Sequence record: OQ411014.1
From: Escherichia phage EJP2
Direction: 5' to 3' (one strand)
DNA: 64,000 nucleotides
Both the position numbers and the translations under genes were made by a program. Each line of letters starts with the position of its first letter. Positions within the stretch are counted from its first letter, which is position 1. Under the pieces are notes generated by a model. It made no database searches. It was not told the origin of the DNA and saw only the letters and a program-made list of their open reading frames with translations. This document shows, in pieces, positions 20,880 through 62,496 of this stretch.

Positions 20880-22358
20880 ATGATCAATATTTTCGGTACT
20901 AATAATGTAGTACCTAACGGCTACATTTATAAGACACACAAAGGTTCCGAATACATTTTTCTAGAAGGATTCTGGTTCAACCATTCTAATCTAAAGATGG
21001 TTGACCCAGCCAAAACTACTAAAATGAATGAGGCAGCATCCGCACAAATCTTGAAACATAATAGTACTGGGAAGCAAATGATTGGTGAATCTTTTTCCTT
21101 TACTGGTAATGATTATGTATACTTAGGTGAAGGTCGATTCACTGAAAACGGCGTTATAGTCGAATCTTCAGTACTGACTGAACTTATGGCAGATGATGAT
21201 CGCGTATATAAGGTATCCCGTGAAACCCTAAACAAAGAATGGGCTACATTGAACTTCTATATCCTTCCACCACACGCAGAAGATGTTTCTATCCCTGCTG
21301 GTCTTGAAGTTGAAGGGTTCAAATTCGTTCCTAAAGGACAACGTTTCATTGATATGCAAACTGGTCGGCCTGCATCCCCTGAAATGACCCGTAAATTACA
21401 TGCTGCTGGTATGCGTTTAGCGAGACAACAAGCAACATCCAACCAACTAGTTCCAATCAACTCAACTCTAAAGATGGGTAATGCTGTTGCTACTTGGAAT
21501 GGTAAAGATTTTTGTGATAATGATGGCAACGTTGTAGTACCAGCAGCACAAGCATCTAATATTTTCTCCAAATATAAGCAATTTGTACACGCAAACCCTA
21601 ATGATTTCCAGAGTTTAGTACAAGACACTAGCAAAGAACAACGTTTTGGTGTTGGTGAAAAGCCTGTTCAGAAACAACCTGTTACTGAAGCTGATGAAGA
21701 AGGTAAAGGTTTAGTTGTTCCTGACGGATATACTATTGTTTCTAAGTCACAAATCCCGTATTATAAAAAGAATGGTGAGTGGATTTCTACTAAAACTAAG
21801 AAACCAATCAACTCATCTGCTGCTAAGAGTGTTGAACGTGCTGCACAAGTCCGTATTGCTGAATACAACAAGTCCGCACCAGTGAAAATTGGTGAAGAAT
21901 GGACTTCAAGTAAAGGTAAAACTTATACTTATGTAGGTGATGACCGATTTATCAGTACTGATGGAAAGCTAATCCCTAAAGATTCTGCTAAAAAGATTCT
22001 TGCAAAACTCGAAGGTGAGCGTAAAGTAGATACTGATAGTCCTTTGGATACAAAAGACAAAGAGCCTAAAGTTCAAGATGCACCAAAACAAGATGCACCG
22101 AAGAGTGAACCAGAAGTTCAGAGTCAAGAAGAACCAAAACAAGATGCACCGAAGAGTGAACCAACACCTTCCAGTACTGAAAACAGTGAACTGTCATCTT
22201 TAGCTGATGCTATCAAACAACATCCTAAAGCGAGAAAGATCACAGTACTGATGACTCGCGGTGACAAGGTATCATTACTAGCAGCGGATTTGATTCTAGC
22301 TGGTAAGGAACAAGATGCTATCAAGATTTTGAAAGCATTAAATAGTAATGATGAATAA
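20880..22358 (+). CDS. hypothetical protein with repeated motifs
   Basis: Recurring Y-x-Y-x-G-(D/E)-x-(F/W) modules and a duplicated KQDAPKSEP segment encoded by a 28-bp exact direct repeat. Confidence 0.6.
   Translation: MINIFGTNNVVPNGYIYKTHKGSEYIFLEGFWFNHSNLKMVDPAKTTKMNEAASAQILKHNSTGKQMIGESFSFTGNDYVYLGEGRFTENGVIVESSVLTELMADDDRVYKVSRETLNKEWATLNFYILPPHAEDVSIPAGLEVEGFKFVPKGQRFIDMQTGRPASPEMTRKLHAAGMRLARQQATSNQLVPINSTLKMGNAVATWNGKDFCDNDGNVVVPAAQASNIFSKYKQFVHANPNDFQSLVQDTSKEQRFGVGEKPVQKQPVTEADEEGKGLVVPDGYTIVSKSQIPYYKKNGEWISTKTKKPINSSAAKSVERAAQVRIAEYNKSAPVKIGEEWTSSKGKTYTYVGDDRFISTDGKLIPKDSAKKILAKLEGERKVDTDSPLDTKDKEPKVQDAPKQDAPKSEPEVQSQEEPKQDAPKSEPTPSSTENSELSSLADAIKQHPKARKITVLMTRGDKVSLLAADLILAGKEQDAIKILKALNSNDE
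22085..22164 (+). repeat. 28-bp exact direct repeat pair within a CDS
   Basis: AAAACAAGATGCACCGAAGAGTGAACCA at 22085-22112 and 22137-22164. Confidence 0.6.
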
Positions 22359-25840: not shown

Positions 25841-27253
25841 ATGAGTAAATTCAATAATTTGTCTACTAAACTTCCCGATTCAGTTTTGCAAGAATGTAAT
25901 GAACGTATGGTACTAGCTCGTACTTCACTGATGCTCTCTAAACCATTCTTTGGTGTTTTGGCATCTCGTCTTCGCCCAGTACCGAATGATACTTGGTGTC
26001 GTACGATGGCAGTAGATGGCAAACACTTGTACTATAACGTAGAATTCGTTATGGGTTTACAAGACCAAACTAAACGTGCACAATACGAAGAAGCACTAAA
26101 AGAATCAATCGACGATATCAGTACTGAACAAATCAATGACGTACTGAACGGTCTATCTGACCAGAACCTGATTGCTGTACTGTGTCATGAAATTCTTCAC
26201 TGTGCTTATGACCACTTCTTGCGTCGTGGTATGCGTGACCCACAACTGTTCAACAAAGCTGCTGACTATGCAATCAACCAGATTCTAGTTCGTGAAAACA
26301 TTGGTAAGATTCAGTCTTCTTGGTTGTACGACAAGAAATATGACGGAATGACCGCTGAAGAAATCTATGTTCTTCTTGAAGAAGAGAAGAAGAAAGAAGA
26401 GCAAGAAAACGGTGGTGGTGATGGCGACGGTGATGGTTCCGATGACCAAGATGGCGATGGTGACGGAAACAGCAACGGTGGTGGTAAGAAGAAAGGTAAG
26501 AAAGGTAAAGGCGGCACAATTGACCAGCATGACGTACCACAAGAAGGTGATGGTGAAGTAAGTGATGCCAAGCGTCGTGAATATATGGAAGATTTCAAAA
26601 CTGCAATGATGAACGCAGCACGTGCTGGTGGTACTCCAGCAGAAATCGAACGTATGATTGACTCCTTCACTAAACCAAAAATCGACTGGCGTTCTAAACT
26701 ACAACGTACTATGCGTTCTTGCATGAAGTCCGATGTAATTTTCTCTAACCCAAGTCGTCGTTCTTGGAGTACGGGCTTCGGTCACAGTGGTTCTTTCTTT
26801 GGTTCTCCTATCTTCCCAGGACTGAAACCAGATGAAGATATTGATATTGCAATTGCACTTGATGCGTCAGGTTCTATCAGTAATGATATGTTGCGTGACT
26901 TCATCAGTGAAGTGATGGGAATCACCAAACAGTTCAAACAGTTCAAGATTCGTATTATGACTTTTGATACTAAGGTTTATACTGTTCGTGATTATAAAAC
27001 TGGTGAAGAGAAGAAGATTCTAGAATATCCAGTTCATGGAGGTGGTGGTACTGATTTCCAAGCAGTTTGGGATCATATGCGTGATGACAACTACCGTCCA
27101 AAACAACTCGTAATGTTCACTGATGGTGAGCCGTGGGATTCCTGGGGTGACGAAAACTATTGTAAGACTCTTTTCGTAATCCACTCCAACCCTGAAAAGA
27201 TTGCACCATTCGGTGAAACCGTACACTACGAGTACGAAGCGAAGCAACACTAA
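25841..27253 (+). CDS. VWA-domain protein with N-terminal HExxH metallopeptidase-like motif
   Basis: HEILHCAYDH motif; MIDAS LDASGSIS and MFTDGEP in the C-terminal VWA domain; Gly/Asp low-complexity linker. Partner of the upstream ATPase. Confidence 0.75.
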   Translation: MSKFNNLSTKLPDSVLQECNERMVLARTSLMLSKPFFGVLASRLRPVPNDTWCRTMAVDGKHLYYNVEFVMGLQDQTKRAQYEEALKESIDDISTEQINDVLNGLSDQNLIAVLCHEILHCAYDHFLRRGMRDPQLFNKAADYAINQILVRENIGKIQSSWLYDKKYDGMTAEEIYVLLEEEKKKEEQENGGGDGDGDGSDDQDGDGDGNSNGGGKKKGKKGKGGTIDQHDVPQEGDGEVSDAKRREYMEDFKTAMMNAARAGGTPAEIERMIDSFTKPKIDWRSKLQRTMRSCMKSDVIFSNPSRRSWSTGFGHSGSFFGSPIFPGLKPDEDIDIAIALDASGSISNDMLRDFISEVMGITKQFKQFKIRIMTFDTKVYTVRDYKTGEEKKILEYPVHGGGGTDFQAVWDHMRDDNYRPKQLVMFTDGEPWDSWGDENYCKTLFVIHSNPEKIAPFGETVHYEYEAKQH

Positions 27254-27261
27254 TATAAATA

Positions 27262-32338: not shown

Positions 32339-32971
32339 TTATAGGATTACATCTCCCCATTTAGCTGCTAGACGAACTGCTTCATAATCTTGTGCTGCAT
32401 CAATTGCAGAACAGATTTCTTGTTCAGTGTCAAACAAGCCGTCACGATACAAGGAAATTTCCAAGTATAGTGCTTTGATTTCAGCAGCAGACATTACTAC
32501 ATCATTTCCTGATTTATCACGAATAGAAAGACTTTCAATGCTTGGGTCTACTAGTAATTCAATTAGCAAACCTTGAAGTTCAAGTCTACCTTCACTAGAT
32601 AGGTCAAATACATTCAAATCTTTTTCGTATTCAGATGTTGCGAGATAAGAACGATGTGCTTCAACACGTTGTTTCATCTCTGCACGAACGATTGCCAAAT
32701 CCATTGGCTTGTAGGTATAGGTATTAATGATTTTACCTTCTACATCATCCATCACAACTTCTTTTTTCTCAAATTCGCAGAACTCACCAGTACCGACATA
32801 ATTATCTTCTTGAATCCAAAAACCGTGAGTTAGACGCCCTTCGGCGTCTAACTTGGTAATGTCTCCAATAGTATAACCAGATACTAATGAACGTTGTCCT
32901 ACGGTGGAACTTGTATATTTCACGAATTCCCATTGGTCGAGTTCGTTCTTGTTAACTACTACATAAACCAT
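32339..32971 (-). CDS. hypothetical protein (possible fiber assembly factor)
   Basis: AAAGGAGA RBS. Immediately downstream of the giant fiber gene. Function inferred from position only. Confidence 0.5.
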   Translation of the reverse strand: MVYVVVNKNELDQWEFVKYTSSTVGQRSLVSGYTIGDITKLDAEGRLTHGFWIQEDNYVGTGEFCEFEKKEVVMDDVEGKIINTYTYKPMDLAIVRAEMKQRVEAHRSYLATSEYEKDLNVFDLSSEGRLELQGLLIELLVDPSIESLSIRDKSGNDVVMSAAEIKALYLEISLYRDGLFDTEQEICSAIDAAQDYEAVRLAAKWGDVIL

Positions 32972-32995: not shown

Positions 32996-35900
32996 TTATA
33001 CGTTACGTTGTGCAATAAACACGTCAATGGTAGAACCTACACCGCTGTATACTAACTGACAGATAGATACAGAGTTTGGAGTGGTGTTAATCGCAGTATC
33101 AGCACCAATCACACTATATGGAGGTGGTAGAGTTAGCGAGTGGTTACCAGTTGCGTCTTGTGTTACATATACGAACCAAGAACCTGCATATCCTGGGGTG
33201 ATTGGTAGGTTACCAACGGTAGTATCACCTGTTAGGGTAATGTTATACACGTTAGAAGTACCATCAGGAGTCCAAGTACCAGTTGCAGAAGCAGCCGGAG
33301 CAGCTTTAACTAGGTATTTGCTAGTACTTACCGATTCAGTTACTAGGTCGCCGATATCAGCAGTTAGTGTACCAGTTACTGTTAGGTTGTTAGCATTAAT
33401 TGTACCAGTACTATCAATATCAACAGCAGTTACTTTACCAGTGAAATCGGAGGTTCCAGATACAGTAAGGCTTGTAGCAGTGATTGCACCTGTGGTTACA
33501 GCAGCTAAGGTAGAAGTACCAGTTACTGTTAGAGTATCAGTTTCTAGACCGCCAGTAATTGCAGCACCATCAGCACTAACAGTTAGTTTACCACCAGTAG
33601 TTAGTGTAGTACCTACGCTCGCCGCAGCAGAGAAAGTAGCAGTACCAGTGCTGGATAGAGTACCAGTTACTGTGGTTGCACCAGTAATTGCAGCACCATC
33701 AGCACTAACAGTTAGTTTACCACCAGTAGTTAGTGTAGTACCAACTGTTGCAGCACCAGTAACTTCAAGAGTTACACCTTTCAAGAAGGAAGTGGAAGTA
33801 ACAGATTGTGCAACTAGATCAGAAGTACTTTGGTCTAGTGTACCAATGATACGACCATTAACAGTAAAGTCACCAGTACAAACTGCGTTACCGTTAAGCT
33901 GTAGGTTGTTGTTTACAGAACCACTTGCACCGATAACAGCAGAGTCAATTGTTGCTTGACCTTTAACTTCGAGTGTAGTACCAACAGATACCGCTTGGGA
34001 AGTTGTTACAGACCGTGGAGAAATATCACGACCAGTTAAGTCGATTTGAGCAGTGATAGTACCATCAACATCCAAGTTACCTGTGATGTGGGTGTTACCA
34101 GAAATCTCAGCAATATATTCTTCTTCGTCCCATACTAGAGTACCTACGTGTAGGTTTGTGGTAGAGGTCTTCTTGAAAGAAGCGGTTGCAGTTGCAGCAC
34201 CGTTCTGTGCGATATTACCAGCAGTTACTGTTAGGTCACCAGTAGTAATTGTTGCACCGTTATCAGAAGTTACAGAACCAAATTTACCTGCACCTGAAGC
34301 AGTGATTGCACCACCTAGGGTTGTTGCACCAGTAGTTACGGTTAGACCGTTATCAGAGGTTACAGAACCAAATTTACCTGCACCAGTACTGGTTAGAGTA
34401 CCACCAACAGTTGTGTTGCCAGTTACACCTAGTGTAGTACCAACAGTTGCACCAGCAGCAGTAGAAACACTATTAACAGATAGGTCAGCACCCGCGAGGT
34501 TTAGACCACCAGCAGGAGTGAATGTACCATTAACGGTCATGTCACCAGTTGCTACCGTGTTACCTGTGATATCTAGTGATGCTAGAGTTGCTTTACCTGA
34601 AGTACTTAGAGTACTAACAGATGTTGCATCAGCAGTTACATCAGCTAGGGTAGATGCACCAGTTACATTTAGTGTAGTACCGATATTTGCACTGTTTAGA
34701 GTTGCTAGACCAGAAGTACTTACAGTACTTAGGGAAGTATTACCAGATACACCTAGGGTTGTAGTAACGCTTGCAGCGTTCGCATTGACAGTTCCTAGAG
34801 TAGATACGCCAGTTACTTCTAGAGTAGTGTTAACTTTAGCACCGTTTAGTGTTGCCAAACCAGTAGTCGTTAGTGCATCAGTAGTTACATCAGCTAGGGT
34901 AGATGCACCAGTTACATTTAGAGAACCACCAACAGTTGTGTCGTTAGTACTGGATAGTGTTAGTGCACTTAGGTTAGTTGCACTTAGGTCGAATTGACCA
35001 TCAACAGTCAAATCACCAGTTACATGAGCGTTACCGAGAGAGTTAAGAGACTTAACAGTTACATCAGTTGTGCTTAGGTCGATTGCTCCAGCAGTTAGTG
35101 TACCAGTTGCATGGAAATCACCAGTTACGTTGGTAGATTTAGCAAGTTGTACAGTAGTTCCAGCAGTTGTAAAGGAAGCAGCAGATACAGCACCAGTTGC
35201 GGATACAGATGAAGCACCAATTGCACCAGCAGTTACACCAGCAAGAGTAGTTTCACCAGTTACTGCTAGAGTACCAGAAGCAGTTACATCAGCCAGGGTT
35301 GAAGCGGCAGATACAGTTACAGCACCTAGAGTTGCTTCGTCGCTTGCTAATTTAGGGAATGTATTTGTTTTAGCAGCATCAGTAGATACAAAACTTAAAG
35401 CAGTTACATCAGCACCAGATAAGTCAACAGTACCAGATACAGCTAGGTTGCCACCGATTGTTGCACCTTCAGTAGTCGTAATAGACTTGGAAGCAATATC
35501 AACAGAAGATAGGTCAAAACCACCAACTGGGGTAAATGTCCCATTAACTGTTAGGTTTTTATCAGCAACAACATCACTTGCTAGAGTTACTGTGCCAGCA
35601 CCAAGTGGAGCAGCTTGAACAGTTGCGGATTCTACCGAAGCACCTTTAACAATACCAGTTGCAGTAATGTTTGTTGCAGAGATATCACCAATGGATTCAA
35701 TACCGCCATTAGGCTTGAAAGAACCAGTTACAGTTAAGTCTTTTGCAGCGACTGCATTACTTGCCAATGTTACTGTACCAGCACCAGCAGCAGCACCTTG
35801 AATAGATGGAACAGTTGCAGTTGCAGCACTTACATCACCAGTTGCAGCGAAAGATACAGCACTGATATCACCAGTTGCATCAATATCACCAGCATTTACA

Positions 35901-38605
35901 GTACCAGCAGTGATGGTAGTACTAGATAGAGTTGGGATGGTGCTTTGTGCAACAGTTGCAGTAATAGATTTAACATTAATATCCGCAGCACTTAGGTCGA
36001 ATGTACCGTCAACAACAAGGTTTCCACCAACGTTTACGTTACCTGTAGTGGTTACAGATGCAGCATCAACAGCAGTAGTACTTAGGTCAATTGAAGCTGG
36101 GGTTAGAACACCAGAAATAGTTACGTCATTTGCAAAAGTGGTATTACCAGTAATGCTTGGAACAACTAATGAATCAGCAGTTACTGAAGCTAATGTTGAA
36201 GCACCAGTTACGCTTAGAGATGCAGCAGATGCAGCACCGATTGCAGAAGCACCAGTTACATTTAGAGAACCACCATTAACTTCACCAGTTGCAGTGACAG
36301 AAGCAGCAGTTACAGCACCAGTTGCCGCGACAGATTCAGCAGAAACGCCAGCAGTTGCTACAACAGAGTTCGGTGCGATATCAAGACCGTCAACGTTTGC
36401 AGCAGCAGTTACACCAGTAGTAGTACCAGTTACAACTAGGTCTTTAACAGTTACAGTTTGACCATTAACAGTTACGTTACCACCAATTGTTGCACCAGCA
36501 GTTGCAGTGATTTCACCTGTTACGCCTAGAGTACCACCAACAGTTGCGTTGCCAGTTACAGCAGCGTTACCACCTACAGATAGATCAGTACCAACAGTAG
36601 TGGTGGTTACAGATTCTAGAGTATTACCATTAAGGGCAGCAGTTGCTACAACAGAGTTAGGTGTTAGGTCTTGACCACTAACATCAACAGTTAGACCAGT
36701 TACAACACCAGTAAATTCAACATCAGCAAGAATTGATTTACCATCAACTTTTAGTTGTGGTTGTGCAGTACCGATAGTACTGTTACCTTGGATGTGAACA
36801 TAATCCATAGTGGATTTGCCTAGTGCAGTTAGACCAGCAGTACCACCAACGTTACCAACAGATGCGTTCTGTAGTAGTGCTTTATCAGCTACAAGGTCAG
36901 AAGTTGCGATTTTGTATGGTTCGATGCTGGATTTGGTGTCGCTTGGGCGAGCCGGATCGTTATATGCAAATTGTAAAATACCGTGGTTACCAGATTCGCC
37001 ATCAATAACGTTTAGAGTACTAAAGTTAGCGATTGAAGTTCTTGCACCAGTTAAGTTACCAGATAGAGTTAGGTTTTGTAGAGTACTTGGACCAGAAACA
37101 TTTAGAGATGTTGCATTAATATCAGTAAATGAAAGACCAGATACTGCACCAGTAATAATCAAATCACCAACTGTGGTTTTTTGTAGTACTGTATCACCAG
37201 TTACTTCTAGTTTTGGTGTTGCTTCACCAATAGTACTGTTACCAGTAATGCTTAGGTAATCAATAGTTGCTTTACCTAGTGCTTTTAGACCAGCAGTACC
37301 TGCTACATCACCAACTTCAGCAGCTTTAAGAACAGCTTTGTCAGCTACTAGATCAGAAGTTGCCATTTTGTATGGTTCGATACTTGATTTTGTGTCATTT
37401 GGACGAAGTGTGTCATTATAAGCGAATTGTACAATGCCGTGGTTTCCAGCAGTACCGTCATCAACAGTAAAAGTACTGAAGCGTGCTACTGAAGAGTTAC
37501 CACCAGTTAGGTTGCCACTCATGTTAACGCCAGCTAGAGTTGATGCACCAGATACGTTTAGAGTTGCTACGTTTAGGTCAGTGAATGAAAGACCAGATAC
37601 TGCACCAGTAATTGTTAGGTTACGAACTGTAGTATCTTGTAGTACTGATTTACCAGTTACTTCTAGGAAGTTATCAGCAGTACCAATAGTACTGTTACCA
37701 GCAATTTTTAGGTAATCGATTTTTGCATTACCGAGAGCGTGTAGACCGTGGTCATCGCCACCACCAACAACACCAACGGTTGCTACGTCAGTTTGGATAT
37801 CGTTGGTATCAATTTCTTGAGTACTAACTTTGTACGGCTCAAGGCTAGTTTTGATATCAGAAGGACGTAGTGGGTCGTTATATGTGAACTGAACACTACC
37901 AGTTTGACCGGAAACACGATATTGGTTTACGGATACAGTACTGTTTGCACCAGTTACGTTACCTTGGATAGTAGTTGCACCTTTAATGTTTACGTTGTTA
38001 AGATCACTTAGTGTTTTAACTTCGATGTTATTGAAAGTACCAGCATCCATAGTGTAAGTGCCACTTAGAGTACCATTGATTTCCACATCACCTAGTGTTG
38101 TTTTGCCAGTTACGTCTAGAGTACTGTCAAGTACTGCTGCACCTTTAGCATGTAGGGCTTCAGTAGTTGTACTACCTAGAGCTACAGTACTAGTTGGTTC
38201 AGTAGAAAGATTGCCATTAACTTTTGCATTACCAGATACGGTTAGGCTATCAGCAGAAGTTTCTTTAAATGAAGCACTACCAGTAGTTTGAGTAATATTT
38301 GAATTAAAAGTTGCTTCGGCATCAACAGCCAAAGTACCTTTAACACTTACTGTATCAGTTAGAGCGTCACCAAGAACGGTATTACCAGATACGTTAAGAT
38401 TTCCGAGATTAGAAGTACCAGTACTTGTAATGTCAGCGAATTGAGCAGAACCCGTCACTGTGATAGCAGTGAATGTGGCATCTGCGAAAGAAACAGTGCC
38501 TTCTACAGAAAGATTTTGCTTGAATACAGCATTACCCTTCAATAGTAGGTCTTTGTCAATCGTTGCTCCACCGAGAACGCCTAGATCAGTTTTAATTGAA
38601 TACAT
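32996..38605 (-). CDS. giant repetitive tail fiber protein (1869 aa)
   Basis: GGAGGG RBS. Long runs of VTG/SGN/ATG beta-helix-like repeats and three ~150-aa tandem repeat units. Confidence 0.7.
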   Translation of the reverse strand: MYSIKTDLGVLGGATIDKDLLLKGNAVFKQNLSVEGTVSFADATFTAITVTGSAQFADITSTGTSNLGNLNVSGNTVLGDALTDTVSVKGTLAVDAEATFNSNITQTTGSASFKETSADSLTVSGNAKVNGNLSTEPTSTVALGSTTTEALHAKGAAVLDSTLDVTGKTTLGDVEINGTLSGTYTMDAGTFNNIEVKTLSDLNNVNIKGATTIQGNVTGANSTVSVNQYRVSGQTGSVQFTYNDPLRPSDIKTSLEPYKVSTQEIDTNDIQTDVATVGVVGGGDDHGLHALGNAKIDYLKIAGNSTIGTADNFLEVTGKSVLQDTTVRNLTITGAVSGLSFTDLNVATLNVSGASTLAGVNMSGNLTGGNSSVARFSTFTVDDGTAGNHGIVQFAYNDTLRPNDTKSSIEPYKMATSDLVADKAVLKAAEVGDVAGTAGLKALGKATIDYLSITGNSTIGEATPKLEVTGDTVLQKTTVGDLIITGAVSGLSFTDINATSLNVSGPSTLQNLTLSGNLTGARTSIANFSTLNVIDGESGNHGILQFAYNDPARPSDTKSSIEPYKIATSDLVADKALLQNASVGNVGGTAGLTALGKSTMDYVHIQGNSTIGTAQPQLKVDGKSILADVEFTGVVTGLTVDVSGQDLTPNSVVATAALNGNTLESVTTTTVGTDLSVGGNAAVTGNATVGGTLGVTGEITATAGATIGGNVTVNGQTVTVKDLVVTGTTTGVTAAANVDGLDIAPNSVVATAGVSAESVAATGAVTAASVTATGEVNGGSLNVTGASAIGAASAASLSVTGASTLASVTADSLVVPSITGNTTFANDVTISGVLTPASIDLSTTAVDAASVTTTGNVNVGGNLVVDGTFDLSAADINVKSITATVAQSTIPTLSSTTITAGTVNAGDIDATGDISAVSFAATGDVSAATATVPSIQGAAAGAGTVTLASNAVAAKDLTVTGSFKPNGGIESIGDISATNITATGIVKGASVESATVQAAPLGAGTVTLASDVVADKNLTVNGTFTPVGGFDLSSVDIASKSITTTEGATIGGNLAVSGTVDLSGADVTALSFVSTDAAKTNTFPKLASDEATLGAVTVSAASTLADVTASGTLAVTGETTLAGVTAGAIGASSVSATGAVSAASFTTAGTTVQLAKSTNVTGDFHATGTLTAGAIDLSTTDVTVKSLNSLGNAHVTGDLTVDGQFDLSATNLSALTLSSTNDTTVGGSLNVTGASTLADVTTDALTTTGLATLNGAKVNTTLEVTGVSTLGTVNANAASVTTTLGVSGNTSLSTVSTSGLATLNSANIGTTLNVTGASTLADVTADATSVSTLSTSGKATLASLDITGNTVATGDMTVNGTFTPAGGLNLAGADLSVNSVSTAAGATVGTTLGVTGNTTVGGTLTSTGAGKFGSVTSDNGLTVTTGATTLGGAITASGAGKFGSVTSDNGATITTGDLTVTAGNIAQNGAATATASFKKTSTTNLHVGTLVWDEEEYIAEISGNTHITGNLDVDGTITAQIDLTGRDISPRSVTTSQAVSVGTTLEVKGQATIDSAVIGASGSVNNNLQLNGNAVCTGDFTVNGRIIGTLDQSTSDLVAQSVTSTSFLKGVTLEVTGAATVGTTLTTGGKLTVSADGAAITGATTVTGTLSSTGTATFSAAASVGTTLTTGGKLTVSADGAAITGGLETDTLTVTGTSTLAAVTTGAITATSLTVSGTSDFTGKVTAVDIDSTGTINANNLTVTGTLTADIGDLVTESVSTSKYLVKAAPAASATGTWTPDGTSNVYNITLTGDTTVGNLPITPGYAGSWFVYVTQDATGNHSLTLPPPYSVIGADTAINTTPNSVSICQLVYSGVGSTIDVFIAQRNV
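33552..33742. repeat. 62-bp exact direct repeat pair within the fiber gene
   Basis: Identical 62-mers at 33552-33613 and 33681-33742, encoding duplicated SVGTTLTTGGKLTVSADGAAITG. Confidence 0.65.
34257..34383. repeat. near-exact direct repeat of about 37 bp within the fiber gene
   Basis: CGTTATCAGARGTTACAGAACCAAATTTACCTGCACC occurs at about 34257 and 34347, encoding GAGKFGSVTSDNG twice. Confidence 0.55.
36560..37950. repeat. three tandem ~450-bp repeat units inside the giant fiber gene
   Basis: Encoded segments (I/S)VQF(T/A)YND..RP(S/N)D.K(T/S)S(L/I)EPYK ... IDYL.I.GNSTIG recur three times. The nucleotide similarity is visible but diverged. Confidence 0.6.
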
Positions 38606-38664
38606 GTAATCCCTCCATTGGATTGTTAATAAGGAACACTTTTCCTGAGCTATGTTATTTCTTA

Positions 38665-38672
38665 TATTTATA
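38665..38672 (-). promoter_or_regulatory. T4-type late promoter box TATAAATA
   Basis: Exact TATAAATA on the minus strand upstream of the giant fiber gene start (38605). Confidence 0.4.
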
Positions 38673-38688
38673 CATCTTCATAATAATA

Positions 38689-38733
38689 AAACCGGATTAG
38701 GTCGATCCTTTCCGGTTTTATTTTTTATTTTTT
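38689..38733. terminator. terminator hairpin flanked by A-run and T-runs
   Basis: AACCGGA ... TCCGGTT followed by TTTTATTTTTTATTTTT. Confidence 0.45.
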
Positions 38734-40814: not shown

Positions 40815-40822
40815 TATAAATA
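40815..40822 (+). promoter_or_regulatory. T4-type late promoter box TATAAATA
   Basis: Exact TATAAATA 33 nt upstream of the ATG at 40855. Confidence 0.45.
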
Positions 40823-40854: not shown

Positions 40855-41352
40855 ATGGCTTTAAGATCAAAGAATTTTCTATTCAAAAGAAAGGGTAAAG
40901 ATGGCGAGTGGTATGATTTCCAAGATTCAGACTCGTGGTACGATACCAATAACGATTATCATTGGAATGAAGTTTCGTTACCACTGGCTGCTGGGGGATA
41001 CTATGGCAGTACTACAGGATTACATACAATTGCATTCACACTACGTCAATTCGTTGGTCGTATATATGTTGAAGCAACTCTGTCAAGCAACCCTGAAGAA
41101 GCGGATTGGTTCCCAATTAAGTTTACTGAATCTTGTCGGTACTATATGGAATTCACGGATACCAGAATTTACGATGAAAATCGTGACAATTTTATTGAAG
41201 AATCAGGGGCAACCGGAACATTTGCCGAAACTCTAGTTGGTAACTTCACATACCTTAGAGTCGGTATTGAACGTAATTACATTAGTATTGACCCAACCGA
41301 GTATCAGAAACGCAAAGGTGGGAAATTAGAAGAAGTTCAAATTAATTTCTAA
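40855..41352 (+). CDS. hypothetical virion protein
   Basis: GAGGGG RBS. Preceded by TATAAATA at 40815-40822. Confidence 0.5.
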   Translation: MALRSKNFLFKRKGKDGEWYDFQDSDSWYDTNNDYHWNEVSLPLAAGGYYGSTTGLHTIAFTLRQFVGRIYVEATLSSNPEEADWFPIKFTESCRYYMEFTDTRIYDENRDNFIEESGATGTFAETLVGNFTYLRVGIERNYISIDPTEYQKRKGGKLEEVQINF

Positions 41353-48844: not shown

Positions 48845-48878
48845 ATAAAAAGGAGCCTTTCGGCTCCTTTTTTTTATT
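48845..48878. terminator. bidirectional terminator between ClpA-like gene and giant gene
   Basis: A-run, GGAGCC-TTTC-GGCTCC, T8 run. Confidence 0.6.
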
Positions 48879-51800
48879 TGATTAATCCAATAAGAATTAC
48901 AGGTGCAATATCCAAACTATCAGAATAAGTACTCAATGGGATTGGTTCATAACCATCACCGTATACTGCAATTTCATTAGTGTTACCTAAATTCAATCCA
49001 GTACTGGTATACGTTACATCCTTTTCGTAATAATTCTGAACAGTACCGTTATAAGCTCGAACAACGAAGTTGTTTTTGCGAACAAGCATTTGTTCTGCAT
49101 TAGATAGGATAATATCGTCAGGTACAACACCAGGCATTGTAGCGATACCATTTTCATAGGTCATGGTGCTTGCCATCTTCGGCTGACTTACGTGAGTGAA
49201 GCTGTCAAACATTGACTTATAAACAACAGTAACAGTACTGTTAGTGTTAATATACACACCATCAACTAGTGGTTTACTATAGATCCAAGAACCATTGTTA
49301 GCAGTAGGGTTAATTTCAGCTACATCGTATTCAAATACTGAAATTTCCAACGCGTCGGTCATTTTAGTACGAACCAATTCACTTAGTACACCTTTACCGT
49401 ACACTGGTAGGTAATATCCATTATCAACCACAGTTCCATCTTCTAGTGTTTGTGTCTCATTAGTACTGTACCATACATCATAGTCATTGGTAGTTAGTTC
49501 TGGTTCATAATTACCACCAATTAAGGAAGTGTCATAGAACACATCATAATCTAGAGCATCGACTCTGTAAGAACGGTTATTAGTATAACGAGTAATTCCA
49601 CCAGCACTAAACTCTGGGTCATTGAAAGATGTAACTCTAACAATGTTGATACTAGTTGGTTTGTTCTGGTTGTAAAGTGATTCATCAGTACTGTTATAAG
49701 TACTAGTGAAAGTTAATCCACCAATAGTTACAGTATTACCAGATACCGAAGTTACTTTAAACAACTTAGGACGATTAGCATCTTTAATTGTTGCTACACT
49801 CAATACAGTTTTCCAAGAACCATCGTTAATAGCGACTGCGTAATCTGAATTGTCTGGGACAAATACAGCTACCGTTTCGCCAACAACGAAATCATTATCA
49901 CCGTCAAGTTCAACAACACCACTTACTGAAGTTACGTTCTTAATACGATATGAATATTGAATTTCATTCTTTTCCAAAATGCTTCTATTCATGTATTCAA
50001 GAGCAACATCATAACGTGGAATACTTACAAGGGCTTCTGAGCGATTATATGGGTTTTGTACGATATAACCTTCAATATTAAAGTTACCTTGATCACGTAA
50101 TTGTGTCTGTACTGAAGTATCAAATCCATATCCATCAACTGTGAATCTTAGCTGTGCCATATCACGTTTAGATGGGTTAAGTTCTGAAATGTCTACAAAT
50201 ACAGGATCGTTAGTACTGTTAGCGACACCAACAACGGAGTTAATAATAGTTTTAGTTTGTGATTCTAGAGCTAAGTTATCGAATGCGTTTTTATCATCAA
50301 AGAATACTTCTTTATTCAAGCCTGACATGATTTGTAAGAAATCACTATATAGTGGGTTCTTATCATCTTCTGGAACGTCATCAAGTGATGGTTGGCTTAG
50401 GCGAACCATATCCCCATCAGTGATATACACTTCTTCCATATATTCTTCTATGCCAACATTCGAAGGAATGCTATAATCTTTTCCTGGAGTAGTTTCACTC
50501 ATTAGGAAAACATATTTCCTAGGCATCAACACTACTGCATAAGCATCAACATCAAGATTCTCTAATACTTTCTCTGCTGCACTATACGGGTCAGTTTCAT
50601 CAGGATTATAAGTCCCTCTAAGTGCTGATAGAACGTGTACTGCATCAGTATAGAAACGATTAGATTCTGGATTATCATCAGTTTCAGGGATTACATATTT
50701 CCATGTATATAAACCGTATTCATATTCCATGTACTCTAGAATCTCAATGTGAGAGAATCCAGGGTTTGCTTCCTTAACTTGATCATAAATCAAATCATAC
50801 ATTGGTTTGCTGTAAGAGATATAACCATAGTTTTCACCATTGCTTGCACTAAATCCAAACGGCAACCTTGTGCTTGGGTTATCACTCAGTACTAGACCTT
50901 TAAATGGACAACCTACTTCAGAACCAATAGTTTCATCAGATTTGGAAGTTGTTAGCTTCAAACGGTTTGAAAGCGTGTTGTACTGAACATAGTTGCGTAC
51001 TTCACTAACCGATTCAGATTTCTCTTCTGCTTCTGCAATTACACGATTAAGTGTAGCTGTAAATTCATCAGATGCTTCAACATCATTAATTAGTGTTGCA
51101 TACATTTGGTCTAAACCATATTTCAAACCACTACTAATATTCATGTTCGGATAGTACTGCGTAATACCGTTCATGATTAATGTTTCCAACTCAGCATTAT
51201 TAATTTCAGGGAAAGTATATGCATAACGCTGGAGCATGTAGTGGGAGCCTTTTACAAGGAAGTCACCAGTATTAGATTGGTATTTCTTGTTCACGTTTTC
51301 TAGTGTTGTTATATCTGCCATATCGGAAGATGGTTTGCACTGGAAGTTGTCAAAGTCAAGAATAACATCAATCTCTTGGAAACGGCGGTTTGGTAGTACG
51401 AAGTTATTTGGTAGTGAGCCTACGATTTCCCACTTCTGACTTACATCGTTGAATTGAGCATATTCGTAATCCCAAATATCTTTTTGTGTTTTAACCCAAG
51501 CACCATCAACATAGATATAACCGTTAGGATCTAAATCGTTTAATAGACCGTTGATTTCATCTTCATCAGATGTCTTCTGCTCTATTTGTGAACGGATTTT
51601 AGTTCTGTATGGTTTCACTTCTTCAAAGTACTGTACGATTTCATTTATTAAATTACCATCAGTAGTTGATCTTTGTTGTAGTGATTGGTCTAGACCAATA
51701 ATATAAATGTAAGAGGTTTTGAATACCCAGTCCACGACTTTCTGCTCAGTGTGTACGTACTTAACCATGTCAAATACTACAGTACTTTGTACAGAGTTGA

Positions 51801-54800
51801 ATGAACCTTTGAGTAGTGCTAATGCTGCACGAACGTTTTTCTCATTATTCGTTAATGCACCATCGCTGTTGTATTGTGAGTAGTTGTTATAAAGAACATT
51901 GTTCAATTGTACAGTGCTCTTCTCACGACCAACTGCTACCCATTGAACTTGACCACGTGATTCAGTTTTTTCATATAATGTCCAGACACCATCGGCATCG
52001 GTAATACGAATCAAATCACCAATCTGGTAGTTTTTAGTGTTAGCAATTTGAATGCTTGTTTCTTCGGTATATTCTGATTCTTCATCAAAACCAACACTAT
52101 ACCAATCAGCATAATCCCAGTAGGTTGTCATATCTAATGAAGTACCAAGCTGATCAATATAGTCAGTTTGCTTAATCATAGTATGTTGACCTTCACCACG
52201 ACTCTCTAGAGTGATAGTTACCGCAGTACCAGAAGTACTTGGGCTATTCATCAAGTGAATGTAACCGTTGTCGTCGTAATGCACAAAGTACACACTAGTA
52301 CGGTTTAGTGGTGCTGGTAATGTACCATTAGTATTAACCAGTACTGCGTCATTCTCTACAAATTTGTTTTCATTTGTGGTGATAACCAATTCGTTGTTAT
52401 AAGTTAGTACTTTAAATCCAACTTCGTTCGGGTTCACAGCGTCAGTCTTCTTAAAGAAGATATCATCCATTACTACAGTGTCAGTTGTCATGTTAATATG
52501 CTTGTACACATTGTTTGCTGAATCAACAAACGTCCTACGAGCTTCTATAACGTCCATAAACCATGTTTTGTTTGCACCTAGACCCAAGTCAGTACTTGGA
52601 TAAGATAACTCAACCACGTTGCCGTTTAGGAGGGTTTCTTGAGACTCCAAAGAGTTCCATAGAGAATTCCAAATAGCTGGGTTGAAGTTGTATTCTTCAC
52701 CTTCTTTACAAAGTTGATACTGTTCATGTTTAATAACATCATCATTATTTTCTTTGTAAGAAACAGTCAATATACTCTTATCATCGTTAATGTCGTGCTG
52801 CATATTAGATAGAATAAAAGAATTCTCATCTACTGGGGAGAACCAAGGAACTCCGAGTACTGAAGGATCAGCAATAATGCGAGCAATCTCATTACAAGAT
52901 TTGGTACGATGCTTAACATGTGGAGTATAGATTGTATCTTTAACCCAGAAGTAATACATTGGCACATAAGTGTTAGTACTAGCATCATATTCAACAAAAT
53001 AAGAATAGTTTTCAGTAACTGCTGTACCGGATGGTAGGTAAGTGGTCTGGCCTTTATTTTGTTTTTGTTGTTCAGTGCAATACTGATCCCAGTTATATGG
53101 TTCTACTGGCGATTTAACCCATTCGTACACATCAATACTACCATGTGGAAGGATTTTACCCCAATTATAACGCTTATATTCTAGAGTCTTATTTACATCG
53201 ACGTTCCCATTAGCATCAAGGATTGGACGAGTATAATCCATGAAGAATGCAGAAGAAGTATCCCACCAAACTTCACCAACTTTATCAGAACCCCAAGCTA
53301 GTAATGTTTCACCATCACTATTGTAGGTTGCTGGGTCACGAGTAGAGGTATATGAAACGTTTGACATTGCCACACCAGGGATAATACCATTGATTGGGTC
53401 ATATGTGTTAATATACATCTCAACAACGTTAGTCATGGAGTTGTAGGTACTTGGGCGGTCGAACAACGAACTGTTAGGTGCTAAGTACTCATATTTTTTC
53501 TGAACGTATGCATCTTTCGCTGCTTTAGTACTGAAACGTGGAACGTATTTGTACATTACAGGTTCTGCACCACTGAAATCAAAATCTACAGTACTGTCGA
53601 ATGCAACAACTATAGTATTTGCAGTAACACCATAGAATTGTGTTTCTTCACGTAGGAAATCAGGCATATAACCGGACTCATCAACGAAGAAGTAAGTATC
53701 ACCATTACTTAGTGTAGATGAAGAACTTAATTCTAGTGTTACTTTCTGTGCTGCGTATTGGTCATCAGTAATAATTGGAGTAATTTTCTTCAAAGTGATA
53801 TTGGTTTTAACAATATCATAGATATTCCAGTTATCATTAGAATCCTGAAGAACCCATACAGACGATGGTAGTGTATTGTAATCGGAAGTATACTTAGAAC
53901 GGTCTTCATAAGCAGTTTGTAGGTCTAGAGTAGTGAATGACACTTCATCTAGAGTTACAGGGCCGATATTTGGCAACTGAATGTTGTCAGATGCACCTTT
54001 ACGCATTGGGAAAGAGAACAAACCATGTGGACGAGTAATCCAACGTGGGTCTACACCTGTTTTACCAAAATAAACGATGTTATTTGCAGTACTGTCCACA
54101 GTTGCATTCTGGTCGAATGTAACCAATTGTGGTTGTTGAGCAAATTCGTTGTTAATTAGTTGGAACTGTAGGTTCTTTTTGCCATATACGTTGCCATATT
54201 CACCGATTTTGAAAGCCCACTCTTGTAGTGCTTTGTAACCTTCGGTATTATAGGTTTTTGATACACGTAGAACACGTTCGAGTACTTGATTAGTACCTTT
54301 GTCACGGATGAAGCCTTTATAGAAATCAACGCGGGCTGGTTCTGATGTGATCATTTCGTTTAAGTAACTTCTGGACTGGTATCCAATTAAATGATTCGCT
54401 AGGGAACGCAATTGAACATCAGATACTGGATTTTCAGTGTCATAATAGTGTCTAAAGTCATCTACTAGTTTTTCAAAGTCAGGTAGTGTGCCAGTTTCGA
54501 GGATAATAAAGCCAGGTGCTTCCAAACGACCATTCCATGAGCCAGTTACATAACCGTACATACGAATCAATTCTTGAATTGAACCATAAGTTGGAATATA
54601 GATGTTATCACCAAAAATAGTTTTATCATCAAACACGATAGCATGTTCATAAGCGATTAAGCTCAAACGAATAAGAGCAATACGCTTGTTGTATTCTTCT
54701 AAACTACGAACAGTGATGATGTTACCGATACGTGCAGTTTCAATTTCATACGGACGAATACCTGTATTATTATCATCTAGTAGAGTCCATAGACCACCAC

Positions 54801-57800
54801 TATATTGTGCAACTGATTCAACAGAACCAAAAGACGCACCGAATTTAACACTTTTAGTACTTGGAGAACAAGAAATATATTCACCACGAGCTAGAGCAGT
54901 CTGACTCCAGTTCAAATAATCCTTCGCAATTTGATTCCAGTTTAGAGTGTTGCCGTTCTCGTCAGTTTCTTCGAAAATAAACCCAACACGTTCCAAATAT
55001 TCACCATAAGCACACAAGAAAGTGTAAACTTCTTGGAAAGAATTCAGTACTGTACCGTATTCAATACTTTGAACTTTATCAGTGTACTCATTGTAATGAA
55101 CTACTGTACGATTACCTTCACGAATAGTAACACGCTTACCATTACGGTTAGGAGTTAAGTATTTGAAGGATGCACCAACTAGATCATAACCAGTAATCTG
55201 ATATCCAGTGCCGTTCCATGTGATATCAACAGCACTCATTGATTCTTCACGGATGGAAGAGCTACGAACTAGACCGATATGTTGGTTTTCTTGAGAAATT
55301 AGACCGAATGTATCAGAATAAAAACTCAATTGGTCTTCTTTACTGAATCCACCAAGTTTATGACCCACATTAATATGTGAACTACGTAAAACGTCACCGT
55401 ACTTAGTAGTAATATCCATTTGTTTGTACTGTAGGTGATCAGTTATGAACATTTGGTATCCTAGGATACGGCTATTGTTCTCATTGTTCACTAGTGTAGT
55501 ACTGTTTAGGTTCAAACGTTGGTTGGTTTCACCAAATAGGAACTGTTCTTTACCACGATAAACTGTTTTAAGAGTACTACCACGAGTATCATAGAAATAG
55601 TTTGCAAACTGTGCTGGTTTAGCACGATATAGTAGTAGAGCTTCATCATATGGGAACATTGCAGTGTTGCGGTAAGTGAATTCAATATCACCCATGTCAC
55701 CATAAGACCACGGTTCTGCACGATGATCAAGGGAACCAGCCACTAAACCTAGAACTTCTGGAGCAATCAGTTCAAATGTGCGAATTTCTTCACCATCTGC
55801 TGTGAAATTACCAGTACCTTTAATAACGAATGGCTGTTTACCAAAACGTTTGTATTTTGCATAAGTTCCTTTGTTCTTACCATATAGAATTGTACCAGTA
55901 CTAGCGTCACCTTTAATACTACCAACATCCCATAGACCACTTGGTACTAATTGGTTGTTTTCATCAATAACTTCAGCTTCATACACGTATACAACTTCAG
56001 TTGGGTCTTCACCAATACGAATTTTGGTTGGTTCATATTCTTGGTTCCACCAAGATGGGCGTTGAGCAAAACCTAACATTTCCCACGGGTGGGTTGCTGG
56101 GCGATATGTACCGAACATGTCACTATAAATTGCTCTCCATGAGCCACGTGCTGGAATATCGGTAACAACGCCATCAACAACATAAGTTGTTCCTTTGTAG
56201 TTCCAAGTTAACCAGTTATTTGCATCATAATCATGTGTACTGTTATCAATACCGTTAGTTGCGATGAAGTTAGTGTAACCACGTAGTAGAAGTGTTTGCT
56301 TCTCGTCACGAGTATAGTCAGTTTCAGTAAAATAAGGAGTCGGGAATAGATCACTCTGAACAAGTTCAGGTACATAATCAATATCTTTGAAATCATTATC
56401 AATACTGTTGAAAATACGGTTTTCTAGTTCGTAAATCACATCATCCATACGACCTACACCATTCAGTACTTTATACGCCTTGGTAATTGTACCAGTATGG
56501 CTTACGTTATAACAACCTAGGTCACGACCAGCATACATATAAGTCGCTTTCTGTGGAGCGTACGCTTTTAGAATACCAATAAACTGTGGAGTCGGTGGAA
56601 TGAAGGCACGAATGTTAGAACTGGAACTACCCATCGCATCAATGAAGAATGGGAAAGTATTATTCTTACCAACGTTAATATTATTAAGAATTGCGTCAAC
56701 AATATTAGATGCACTGTTGGAAGTGAATGCAGATGGATCTTCATTGTACATATTAACCATTTGAGTATTGAATTTGTTCATGAAACGGAAGTATTCAGAT
56801 TGCATAAATTCAATTGCAGCAAATAGGTCAATATTTTCATTCGCTGTGTTAATCATTAGTGGAAGCATAGATGCTTCGTTCTGGATAATCTTAGTACCGA
56901 CAGAGTTATCAACTAGACCTTTAGCAAGACGTTCTTCGTAGTCGTTAAAATCATTTACTGTACCAGTAGTGATGTTACGTTGAATAATTTCTTGGAAATG
57001 TGGTGTATATAGACTTTGATCAATATAAGTGATAAAATCATTATACGGGTTGTTCTGTAGGTTGATTGGAATTTCATAAGAACCCAAGTTAGTATCTGGT
57101 GTTTGTACAGGACTGTAAGTTCTGATTTCAACAATGCTATCATCGGTTAGTTTGATAGAACTATCTAGAGTTATAGATTCAACAAGACCATTTTTATCCA
57201 ATTTAGTACTGAACTTTGTGGTTTCTTCTGTACCAACACGCACATAAAGTACATCTGTGCTTGATGATAGGTTGACACGTTGAGCTAGTTCAAATGTGTG
57301 GTTAAAAAGTTCAGATGGAACGTAGTCATTACCAGCTTCACGATGCCAGTCCATAAAAGTACTGTTATCTGCTTTGTAATATTTGAATGTTGCATCAATA
57401 TCCATTACATAAGCGTACATATTTTCAATTGGATTTTGGAAATTATTCATCTCTTGTACAGTACTGAATACATTGTACATAGAGGTTTTGGTCATAGCAG
57501 GAACTTGACGAACATACTGTTTGGTAAATTCATCGCTACGATCCCAGTCTGATTTTAGATTTACTGAACCGTCAGAACCAATTACGTTATAGTAATACAA
57601 ACCAGAAATTTCAGTAGTTGCTCCAACTTTATCATAATCATAACGAGTACTCTGAATGAAGTTCTCGAAAACATAATAGTTGTAAGAGTTCAATTCAACG
57701 TTAGTGTTATAGATTTTATTGTAGTTGTAGTCAAAGTTAACTTTAAGGCCAAATAGTGGGGAACCTTTAAAAGAACTACTTGGGTAAATTTGAGGATCGT

Positions 57801-58887: not shown

Positions 58888-58922
58888 TTTATTCTCCATA
58901 AAATTCATTTCTTCATTTGTTT

Positions 58923-58930
58923 TATTTATA
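58923..58930 (-). promoter_or_regulatory. T4-type late promoter box TATAAATA
   Basis: Exact TATAAATA on the minus strand about 36 nt upstream of the giant gene ATG (58887). Confidence 0.4.
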
Positions 58931-61900: not shown

Positions 61901-62426
61901 TCTTAACTGGATTACCAAATTGGTTAGTACTGATGAATGAACTATTCATAACTAGAATAAAGTTCTCGTACCAGTTAGGATCTGCTGGGTCATTCCATTG
62001 AATCGTACGGCCTTTAAGAGATTGGTTGTAGCTGTTTAGTACGTCTTGGTTTGTTTTAATTTCAGTAATTTTGGCTACTGCACGACCTGGATAAGCACGC
62101 TTAGGTGAATACGAAATCATCTTAGCAAGTTTCAGTACTGAAGCTCTGCGTTCTGCGGTATCTAGGAAGTTTTCACGAGTGTTCATGTCCATACGGAATG
62201 CCAAGTTCTGCCCTAGCATACTAATGGTGTCGAGAATGAAGATGAATTCGTCGTTTTCAATCCAGTCGTTGAACTGATCTGGATAAGTGATTCGTAGATA
62301 CTCTACCATACTTTCACGAATCGTATCAAAGTCAAAAGCGGTAAGGTTGATCTTATAAAAACTCTCATACACCTGCTTCCAGTCCTCGGCAGTGTATAAG
62401 TTGGACTGTCTTTTTTGTTGTGCCAT
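58965..62426 (-). CDS. large baseplate wedge-like protein (about 1153 aa)
   Basis: ATG at 62426 with AAGGA RBS. Immediately downstream of the gp25-like gene, as gp6/J-type wedge genes are. Confidence 0.55.
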   Translation of the reverse strand: MAQQKRQSNLYTAEDWKQVYESFYKINLTAFDFDTIRESMVEYLRITYPDQFNDWIENDEFIFILDTISMLGQNLAFRMDMNTRENFLDTAERRASVLKLAKMISYSPKRAYPGRAVAKITEIKTNQDVLNSYNQSLKGRTIQWNDPADPNWYENFILVMNSSFISTNQFGNPVKKIMINGINTQLYRMNTLPMSAPNMPFSANINGETVTFEVVNPDISTVGVSERMPEPQDQKYIIYSNDGNGFSSPDTGFFVYFKQGSLSYSDYQYDTRIENRLQDVNVDNINQTDVWVQEINEDGIVRTKWTQVPSMESIAYNSVDRQKKTIYSVTTRDRDQITIKYPDARSGTVPRGTYRVWYRVSNGKSYTIKTSSIQNKSVKYVYRTKSQTDYENSSLDVKFTLQRESRLAQSAETIEQIKDRAPQMYYTQDRFVTGEDYNIAPLMLGNAVIKGKALNRIYSGMSRFIDINDPTGKYQNTDVFSDDGAMYKENVNKSNTLLLPSPKSNESIVIDNIQPLLGENSVIQYYQQWDSNTIVVTFNQIWTPEHNSSYTNNTYGQFLQSGVPIETYEVGTLIKMEGTTGNSVWTSIVSVLDDGYYVLSTPVDAAMTIDSYIEPYRVKFNTSEVQQIAAAIDKKTDFVIIYDTSSHTWIPIEGTYSGSTILYNGITYPILVNVQYTAESWEFVSNGVEYIFVGGSKVKFYFVSSKKISDISTGTVQSDKIAILNNNASYTSNLGYSQNIDFQIYDTIQQENGYLDGSRVIITSKNTDSNGIPLEPDLYSSLVPTLSGTDLQKYGGVLIFHENDDFTIDMLEDDDSYTILDTSWTYTTAQANAEVNAYRRKEFLRNVQIRSNSFSDLYNHGSGYLIAYQYDGEYHFIQQTVGNNNERLDNFISNLMLPTDTSTISPELAFYRATQNEGQDDKDEKLKLSYYGYVDVSNEYTVRTGARTGINFQWKHYAPDDNRIDPSRTNLIDMYVLTTNYYDSVNIWIKNGAVGEFPKPPTSVELQDMFTEVEGKMVISDSSIWHSAEFLKLFGASADEDYRADLKIVKLPTTTLSNDEIRQKVVELTRNYFDVQNWDFGETFYFTELSTYIQVSMATDVAAVVIVPQDPNSKFGELFEIPCRPDQLFISTATVDNVQIVSSLAKSNINIGN

Positions 62427-62496
62427 AATTAATCCTTGCGTTCTAATATGAGTTATATATCTTACGTTTTCTATGCACACGTATTATGAATTTATT

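Follow-up and report, generated by a model that had tools for sequence, protein, structure and literature searches.

The long tail-fibre gene of Escherichia phage EJP2 and its probable growth by nested in-frame segmental duplication

In a 64,000-nucleotide (nt) stretch of the genome of Escherichia phage EJP2 (OQ411014.1), referred to here as the window, the open reading frame (ORF) at positions 32996-38605 on the minus strand, which starts with ATG and comprises 1,869 codons and a stop, is probably the long tail-fibre gene of this phage, grown by nested in-frame segmental duplication; we give this reading as a whole a probability of about 70%. The repeated DNA marks segmental duplications in the fibre gene, and recombinational change of its length is supported over evolutionary time and weakly at present, being plausible but unproven today for a pair of 62 base pairs (bp). 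EJP2 is a 349-kb Rak2-related jumbo myophage that uses lipopolysaccharide (LPS) as receptor and has a host range reported as broad (PMC10213699). The product of the gene is residue-for-residue that of WEM33283.1 (Escherichia phage EJP2), which carries the GenBank name 'flagellar hook-length control protein'.

Identity of the gene and its internal repeats

The initial annotation had called this locus a giant fibre gene, a description that is borne out by its match to phrog_4549 'tail fiber protein' in PHROGs (E = 3e-204), by a gene order shared with Salmonella phage Munch and Erwinia phage Hallingskeid, by a PF26209 domain at the C-terminal end and by homology with a fibre of phage phiTE. Searches by tblastn with the whole protein found homologues in 393 phage records, most of them, among the matches listed, annotated as long tail fibre, and the best match was to the Munch group with 52% protein identity over 82% of the query. 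Local Pfam and NCBIfam scans returned zero families for the fibre, the local Pfam copy being one without the PF26209 model. Threonine accounts for 18% of the residues, and Thr, Ala, Gly, Val and Ser together for 62%.

From the N- to the C-terminus the protein comprises a conserved N-terminal region of 148 amino acids (aa), presumed to be the attachment end of the fibre, three modules, a shaft of repeat pairs and a C-terminal domain of ~110 aa. A self-comparison by blastp gives the diagonal only, and the repeats were found by segment-wise searches. The elements, all on the minus strand and in gene order, are as follows.

38162-38605, minus strand: conserved N-terminal region, aa 1-148 (MYSIKTDLGV...), with 49-69% identity to ten orthologues across its first 100 aa
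37706-38161, minus strand: module 1, aa 149-300, with module 1 of all relatives as its orthologue
37250-37705, minus strand: module 2, aa 301-452, sister of module 3
36794-37249, minus strand: module 3, aa 453-604, from hidden Markov model (HMM) match, tree and alignment
36566-36793, minus strand: partial start of a fourth module, aa 605-680, ~40% identical to the first part of the module and leading into the shaft
36251-36748, minus strand: shaft pair of ~93-aa period, aa 620-697 and 713-785, 50% aa identity
35456-35785, minus strand: pair of 61-aa period, aa 941-991 and 1002-1050, 58% aa identity, at a +61-aa insertion or deletion (indel) relative to orthologues
34508-34984, minus strand: pair of 83-aa period, aa 1208-1285 and 1291-1366, holding a 39-bp repeat, at indels of +38 to +65 aa
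34184-34384, minus strand: 30-aa tandem pair (GAGKFGSVTSDNG...), aa 1408-1437 and 1438-1474, from segment search
33681-33742, minus strand: 62-bp core, first copy in gene order, aa 1622-1642, GTTLTTGGKLTVSADGAAITG, exact repeat
33614-33680, minus strand: 67-nt spacer between the cores, unrelated to the sequence after the second core
33552-33613, minus strand: 62-bp core, second copy in gene order, aa 1665-1685, exact repeat
32999-33334, minus strand: C-terminal domain, aa 1758-1869, PF26209 Phage_phiTE_241_C, a precomputed Pfam match on identical or near-identical products

The three tandem units of ~450 bp (~150 aa) described in the initial annotation are confirmed, with a period of 456 bp or 152 aa, the sole global periodicity of the protein, over 36794-38161 (aa 149-604), where the HMM gives three full-length matches, and with a partial fourth start in addition. 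Between modules 2 and 3 identity is 72.5% in DNA and 69% in protein, and module 1 compared with either of them gives ~62% and 40-42%, respectively, so that DNA identity among the three ranges over 61-73%. Six residues of the module, F, Y, G, G, D and Y, are invariant, the motif RP..D.K.S.EPY is nearly so, and the nearly invariant module motif opens with QF.Y.D.. and later carries G..G....DY..I.GN. The module is rare, with 47 clusters found among 1.84 billion representatives by profile search (E <= 1e-3), and in most of these clusters the match lies at about residues 140-300.

The shaft is built of in-frame repeat pairs with periods of about 93, 61, 83, 30 and 43 aa, those of ~93, 61 and 30 aa having gone unmentioned in the initial annotation; Tandem Repeats Finder reports a period of 90, with 1.9 copies and 81% matches, at 34237-34405. 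The two exact repeats noted previously are both present, the first precisely as described (33552-33613 and 33681-33742, 62/62 identical, with a spacing of 129 nt or 43 codons) and the second, given before as about 37 bp, with a corrected length of 39 bp (34634-34672 and 34883-34921, spaced by 249 nt or 83 codons). Beyond the 62-bp core the two 129-nt periods match in register at only 19 of 67 positions; the repeat is a core present twice around a 67-nt spacer and not a tandem unit of 129 nt.

The 62-bp repeat lies above every shuffled control. When codons were shuffled among synonyms with the protein kept (n = 300), the longest exact repeat had a mean of 20 nt and a maximum of 38 nt, and when codon order was shuffled (n = 300) the maximum was 22 nt; the probability of identical codons across the 21 residues common to the cores is 2.7e-6. 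The 39-bp repeat exceeds the protein-preserving null by a narrow margin only. Of the 12 exact direct repeats of at least 18 nt in the window, nine fall inside the fibre gene, which makes up 8.8% of the window, and at the DNA level all exact repeats of at least 20 nt are in frame in the EJP2 fibre gene and in the orthologous or near-identical fibre genes of Munch, Hallingskeid, L004, L005 and L008. Outside the fibre gene, the window's longest exact repeat is a direct repeat of 31 bp on the plus strand (22082-22112 and 22133-22163), spaced by 51 nt in frame inside the ORF at 20880-22358.

Length differences among orthologues and close relatives

The EJP2 fibre was compared by global alignment with nine shorter orthologues of 1,537-1,641 aa, and all the large gaps fall on internal repeats. 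The module array is longer in EJP2 by 152 to 155 aa relative to eight of the nine, and by 146 aa relative to P0011; module 2 or module 3 is the extra copy with respect to the two-module orthologues. Further indels lie in the shaft. EJP2 has 61 aa more at about aa 970-1030 (for some orthologues the difference is split into indels near aa 900-980). Within aa 1227-1300 it is longer by 38 to 65 aa; within aa 1403-1449 the excess is 14 to 26 aa over most orthologues and 8 aa over one, and at about aa 1655-1670 it is 12 aa over some. The orthologue P0002, which is 67% identical, has 1,861 aa and carries three modules, differs by the +12-aa indel only.

The HMM count of full modules is three for EJP2, its three near-identical relatives, P0002 and the divergent P0020; most Rak2-like phages have two, and P0022, P0025 and the CR3/phiTE-like fibres have a single one. 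All first modules fall into one group in a neighbour-joining tree built from the modules, and modules 2 and 3 of EJP2 are sisters and therefore point to a lineage-specific duplication; the third module of P0002 groups with the second module of P0003, and the copies of P0020 group among themselves. The sequences thereby suggest at least three separate module gains in the family, a count that is provisional because the tree was made without bootstrap support.

The motif GGKLTVSAGG, which makes up the 62-bp core, is duplicated in seven lineages with periods of 30, 35, 43 and 47 aa. In EJP2 its two copies agree over all of their 21 aa and in P0004 over all of their 22 aa, but they differ between lineages; recurrent duplication or gene conversion would be expected to give this pattern, which suggests concerted evolution. 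The proposal of the initial annotation, that the repeats allow expansion and contraction of the fibre, is in this way upheld over evolutionary time, by indels that sit on repeats and by a module number of one to three, and receives weak support for the present, from the closest relatives.

These relatives are the members of the 90%-identity cluster of the fibre protein, which holds four; no further close relatives were found in the viral or genome contig collections scanned, and a scan of metagenome contigs gave one distant fibre locus only, with 38% identity.

EJP2: 100% nt identity, three modules, both 62-bp cores intact
L007 (MEGAHIT, k119): 99.5% nt identity to EJP2, three modules, both cores intact
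L004 (16x coverage): 98.6% nt identity to EJP2, three modules, an 18-nt in-frame tandem duplication inside core 1
L003 (3.7x coverage): 98.8% nt identity to EJP2, three modules, without exactly 129 nt (33614-33742)

Among these near-identical fibres (n = 4) variation is seen at the 62-bp site, which differs in length in L003 and L004, and not in the modules. The duplication in L004 converts TLTTGG to TLTTGG-TLTAGG and is accompanied by two substitutions, so that the exact repeat at this site is down to 27 + 25 nt. The 129 nt missing from L003 correspond to core 1 and the spacer, a loss that recombination or slippage between the cores would be expected to produce.

How the repeats arose would be explained by unequal or illegitimate recombination, or replication slippage, between short identical stretches, with selection keeping only in-frame products, which would make a trimeric, beta-structured fibre longer or shorter. 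The 62-bp core pair would be the youngest such event, or would have been homogenised by gene conversion, and may be the sole site likely to recombine appreciably now, adding or removing 43 aa of shaft. The repeats would then be traces of past duplications and, where still identical, possible substrates for new ones. The variable parts of the fibre are the shaft and not the tip; any effect on adsorption or host range might come from fibre length, reach or flexibility rather than from a new receptor-binding surface, and the step from fibre length to host-range variation is drawn by analogy with other phages.

Several observations weigh against this reading, in particular against recombination at present. 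The number of 456-bp modules is invariant in all four close assemblies, and the longest exact run common to modules is 29 nt; because of this run, the 61-73% DNA identity and the invariance among the four, the modules are poor recombination substrates today, being old copies too diverged for ready recombination now. L003 is a metagenomic contig (ERZ794976 NODE_382) with a SPAdes-style name, from which its assembler was deduced, and its fibre has 12 nt replaced by 32 nt at aa 222-226 (about 5560-5600 of L003), a frameshifting change in which the 32-nt stretch is AT-rich and has stop codons. The 372-aa tail gene next to the fibre is also split in L003, which represents a defective phage or else a low-coverage assembly of poor quality. 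Its deletion lies at the sole repeat longer than 55 nt, and a 62-bp repeat exceeds the k-mer usually used by such assemblers. For this reason, that the sole deletion site is the sole repeat of such length, the deletion may be a collapse of the de Bruijn graph during assembly. An AlphaFold2 monomer model of two modules (aa 286-620, from a 21-row alignment) was poor, with a predicted local distance difference test score (pLDDT) of 54 and a predicted template modelling score of 0.28, and LPS is the only receptor that has been reported for EJP2 (PMC10213699).

The same data could be read as fixed structural periodicity, in which the repeats are old duplications kept for a beta-strand fold without appreciable recombination today, the deletion in L003 comes from a collapse in assembly and the insertion of 18 nt in L004 is an ordinary rare indel. 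The absence of any 456-nt indel among the four close relatives, the divergence of the modules and the state of the L003 contig all agree with it, as does the MEGAHIT k119 contig L007, which keeps both cores. We nonetheless consider it rather unlikely, since 62 nt of perfect identity with unrelated flanks needs recent duplication or conversion, length differs at the 62-bp motif in two of the four close relatives, the same motif has been homogenised within the protein independently in P0004, and module number has changed at least three times in the family.

Relation to known fibres and other readings

The fibres of Munch (CPT_Munch_252), 7t3, SE_PL, fENko-Kae01 and Hallingskeid (CDS0438) are orthologues of the EJP2 fibre. 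The Munch/Hallingskeid-type fibres have the neighbourhood, N-terminus, module type, shaft motifs and C-terminal domain of EJP2, but are 1,495-1,560 aa long, with two modules against three, and they are without the extra 61-aa copy and parts of the 83-aa and 30-aa repeats; the Munch fibre is also without the second GGKLTVSAGG core.

More distantly related are phiTE gp241, a 'putative tail fiber protein' (Protein Data Bank (PDB) entries 9CUY/9MJN, chain g), and the fibres of Vequintavirinae (CR3, rV5/FV3, phAPEC8), which have PF26209, one module and the shaft motif VTGTTTGV..DVDGLDI.P.SV in common with EJP2; at 793-1,090 aa they carry no more than this one module, and their shaft is much shorter. 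BLASTP aligns the module, shaft and tip of the EJP2 fibre with phiTE gp241. Profile matches to gp241 (9CUY chain g) reach E = 9.6e-74 for the C-terminal region and E = 7.5e-28 for the module, and phmmer of the fibre against 9cuy_g gives 3e-32 over aa 1758-1866; chain g was not matched to any one named phiTE fibre. Judged by its sequence, the EJP2 protein has the features of a gp241-type fibre, namely the PF26209 end, the module after an N-terminus of ~140 aa and the location in a tail/baseplate block. The phiTE fibres are trimeric, with their N-termini on the baseplate wedge and an extended beta-helix predicted beyond the modelled part (PMC11972413), and by analogy the EJP2 fibre would be trimeric and baseplate-attached. 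The published phiTE model covers N-terminal fibre residues only (PMC11972413), and the module and the C-terminal domain are for this reason without a solved structure.

In an AlphaFold2 model of the last 270 aa a confident beta-sandwich (pLDDT > 90) was obtained only for the last ~100 aa, and Foldseek with the C-terminal model against the PDB found nothing convincing (template modelling score at most 0.25). A protein search with the C-terminal 310 aa gave no matches, and low-complexity candidates are suspected of having saturated its list. The C-terminal domain is conserved across the fibres of phages that infect many genera, and because of this conservation it is unlikely to be the sole determinant of specificity, so far as the sequences can tell.

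Segmental duplication in fibre genes of myophages has precedents. Tetart et al., whose study is cited in PMC6365445, reportedly found in 1996 that duplications in T4 gene 37 between 'His-box' motifs expanded host range. In the Enterococcus phage EfV12-phi1, 1.8-kb in-frame duplications of the long tail fibre arose repeatedly during coevolution with the host, with a copy number that was heterogeneous in long reads (PMC6365445). As in EJP2, these are in-frame segmental duplications in the long fibre gene of a myophage with a copy number that varies by lineage, but they arose in real time and were tied to infectivity, whereas those of EJP2 are mostly old and diverged. Among the close relatives of EJP2 the length differences amount to 43 aa and 6 aa only, compared with duplications of 1.8 kb in EfV12-phi1.

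T4 gp34 is long, trimeric and beta-structured, with repeated domains, and it resembles the EJP2 fibre in being a very long myophage fibre protein in which segments are repeated. The searches detected no sequence match to structures or families of gp34, and distal partners of the gp35/36/37 type are not evident by PHROGs beside the EJP2 fibre gene; the gp34 label on many orthologues is an annotation habit and not a demonstrated relationship. RaK2 gp098 serves in the baseplate as a secondary receptor-binding protein (PMC10253068), and we do not claim orthology with it, as no RaK2 record was among the matches listed by tblastn with either the whole protein or the C-terminal domain; the Klebsiella matches to the C-terminal query, among those listed, are phages of about 140 kb.

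The names given to the family in databases ('flagellar hook-length control protein', 'autotransporter', 'YadA domain protein', 'colanic acid-degrading protein' and 'long tail fiber proximal subunit') are unsupported. Zero Pfam or NCBIfam families match the full-length fibre as they would a flagellar hook-length control protein (FliK), and the head, stalk and anchor domains of a trimeric autotransporter or YadA-like adhesin are without match in the Pfam scan. Bactofilin (PF04519), a precomputed match on some homologues, scores at best 23.2 bits against a cut-off of 27.9, in the N-terminal 150 aa, and we read this sub-threshold score as a likeness between beta-helix-like repeats and not as membership.

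Some of these names on orthologues ('autotransporter', 'YadA domain protein' and 'flagellar hook-length control protein') would fit another kind of surface filament, for instance whiskers, tail 'hairs' or a decoration of adhesin type, instead of a baseplate-attached fibre, and the related phage CBB has whisker-like structures along its tail (PMC5259590). This we hold to be improbable, given that the FliK, YadA and autotransporter families are without a Pfam or NCBIfam match, that the gene stands amid tail, baseplate and sheath genes and that the deposited baseplate model of phiTE includes a homologue as one of its chains.

Also improbable, in our view, is that the module acts as a fibre 'node' for docking or branching, or that the 62-bp pair is a high-frequency in-frame length switch. 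If the module were a node, its nearly invariant motif would be a docking or branching site for another virion protein, and a module number of one, two or three would determine how a branched adsorption apparatus is arranged, in its valency or its geometry. The least credible proposal, that the 62-bp pair is a programmed switch giving long and short fibres in each lysate as a form of bet-hedging, would suit its perfect in-frame identity, the polymorphism of the site in two of four relatives and the population heterogeneity in duplication number documented for the tail fibre of EfV12-phi1, but has against it the decay of identity in L004, a sole deletion allele that may be an artefact and a neighbourhood of the fibre gene in which no site-specific recombinase or dedicated machinery was noticed.

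Neighbouring genes and what the fibre gene means

The gene order around the fibre gene runs from a NUDIX gene through three small genes, a 372-aa 'tail protein' and a 293-aa 'virion structural protein' to the fibre, followed by a 210-aa DUF4376 protein, a 639-aa protein and thymidylate synthase; besides Munch and Hallingskeid, four metagenomic contigs have this order in common. The surroundings include PHROGs matches to 'tail protein' and 'virion structural protein', and sheath-stabiliser-like and baseplate wedge genes. The features next to the fibre gene are the following.

32339-32971, minus strand: 210-aa DUF4376 protein, phrog_17968 'virion structural protein', downstream of the fibre gene by 24 nt
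38611-38616, minus strand: putative ribosome-binding site GGAGGG, five nt before the fibre ATG
38665-38672, minus strand: upstream motif TATAAATA, resembling a T4 late promoter, with a putative promoter function

The DUF4376 protein adjoins the fibre gene in every relative examined and has a weak match to phrog_10508 'tail fiber protein'; no relative of it was found in the PDB. It is likely a fibre partner or assembly factor, and a candidate for such a role from its position.

The motif TATAAATA, which we take to be the T4 late-promoter consensus, occurs four times in the window, at 27254-27261 (plus), 38665-38672 (minus), 40815-40822 (plus) and 58923-58930 (minus), compared with 5.9 expected, and is thus not above chance. 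Each of the four sites is in a short gap between genes and is oriented toward the gene downstream, the contexts being the fibre gene, the ORF at 40855-41352, an ORF of 3,344 aa and the gap after the ORF at 25841-27253. Between the stop of the 293-aa gene and the copy of TATAAATA before the fibre gene there is a hairpin, AACCGGA...TCCGGTT followed by TTTTATTATTAT, at 38692-38716 (minus), which looks like a terminator and was not listed by the consensus scan; scans for sigma-70 promoters and intrinsic terminators were at or below shuffle expectation and were for this reason left unused.

The 3,344-aa ORF (48874-58908, minus) matches phrog_10938 'virion structural protein' over its whole length and is without a Pfam family; its product, nearly double the fibre in size, is uncharacterised. 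Next to it lies a 1,171-aa homologue of a baseplate wedge protein (58965-62480, minus). Five ORFs of 149-314 aa run antisense to the fibre gene on the plus strand, at 33081-33959, 34053-34997, 35070-35618, 35910-36461 and 36810-37259, and are most likely a by-product of its repetitive Thr, Ala, Gly and Val codons and not genes.

No new mechanism is put forward here, as other phages already provide documented cases of segmental duplication in tail-fibre genes and of its use in adaptation to the host. The deposited 'flagellar hook-length control protein' is corrected to a tail fibre, and because fibre length has changed by whole modules, the 152-aa module and the segments of 61, 43 and 30 aa offer natural in-frame cut points for engineering. 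In production lots, the 129-bp period is where instability should be looked for. The bacteria within a phage's reach are decided by its tail fibres, and EJP2 is considered for the biocontrol of resistant E. coli; for such a phage the practical value of these data lies in a corrected annotation, natural module boundaries and one potentially unstable site.

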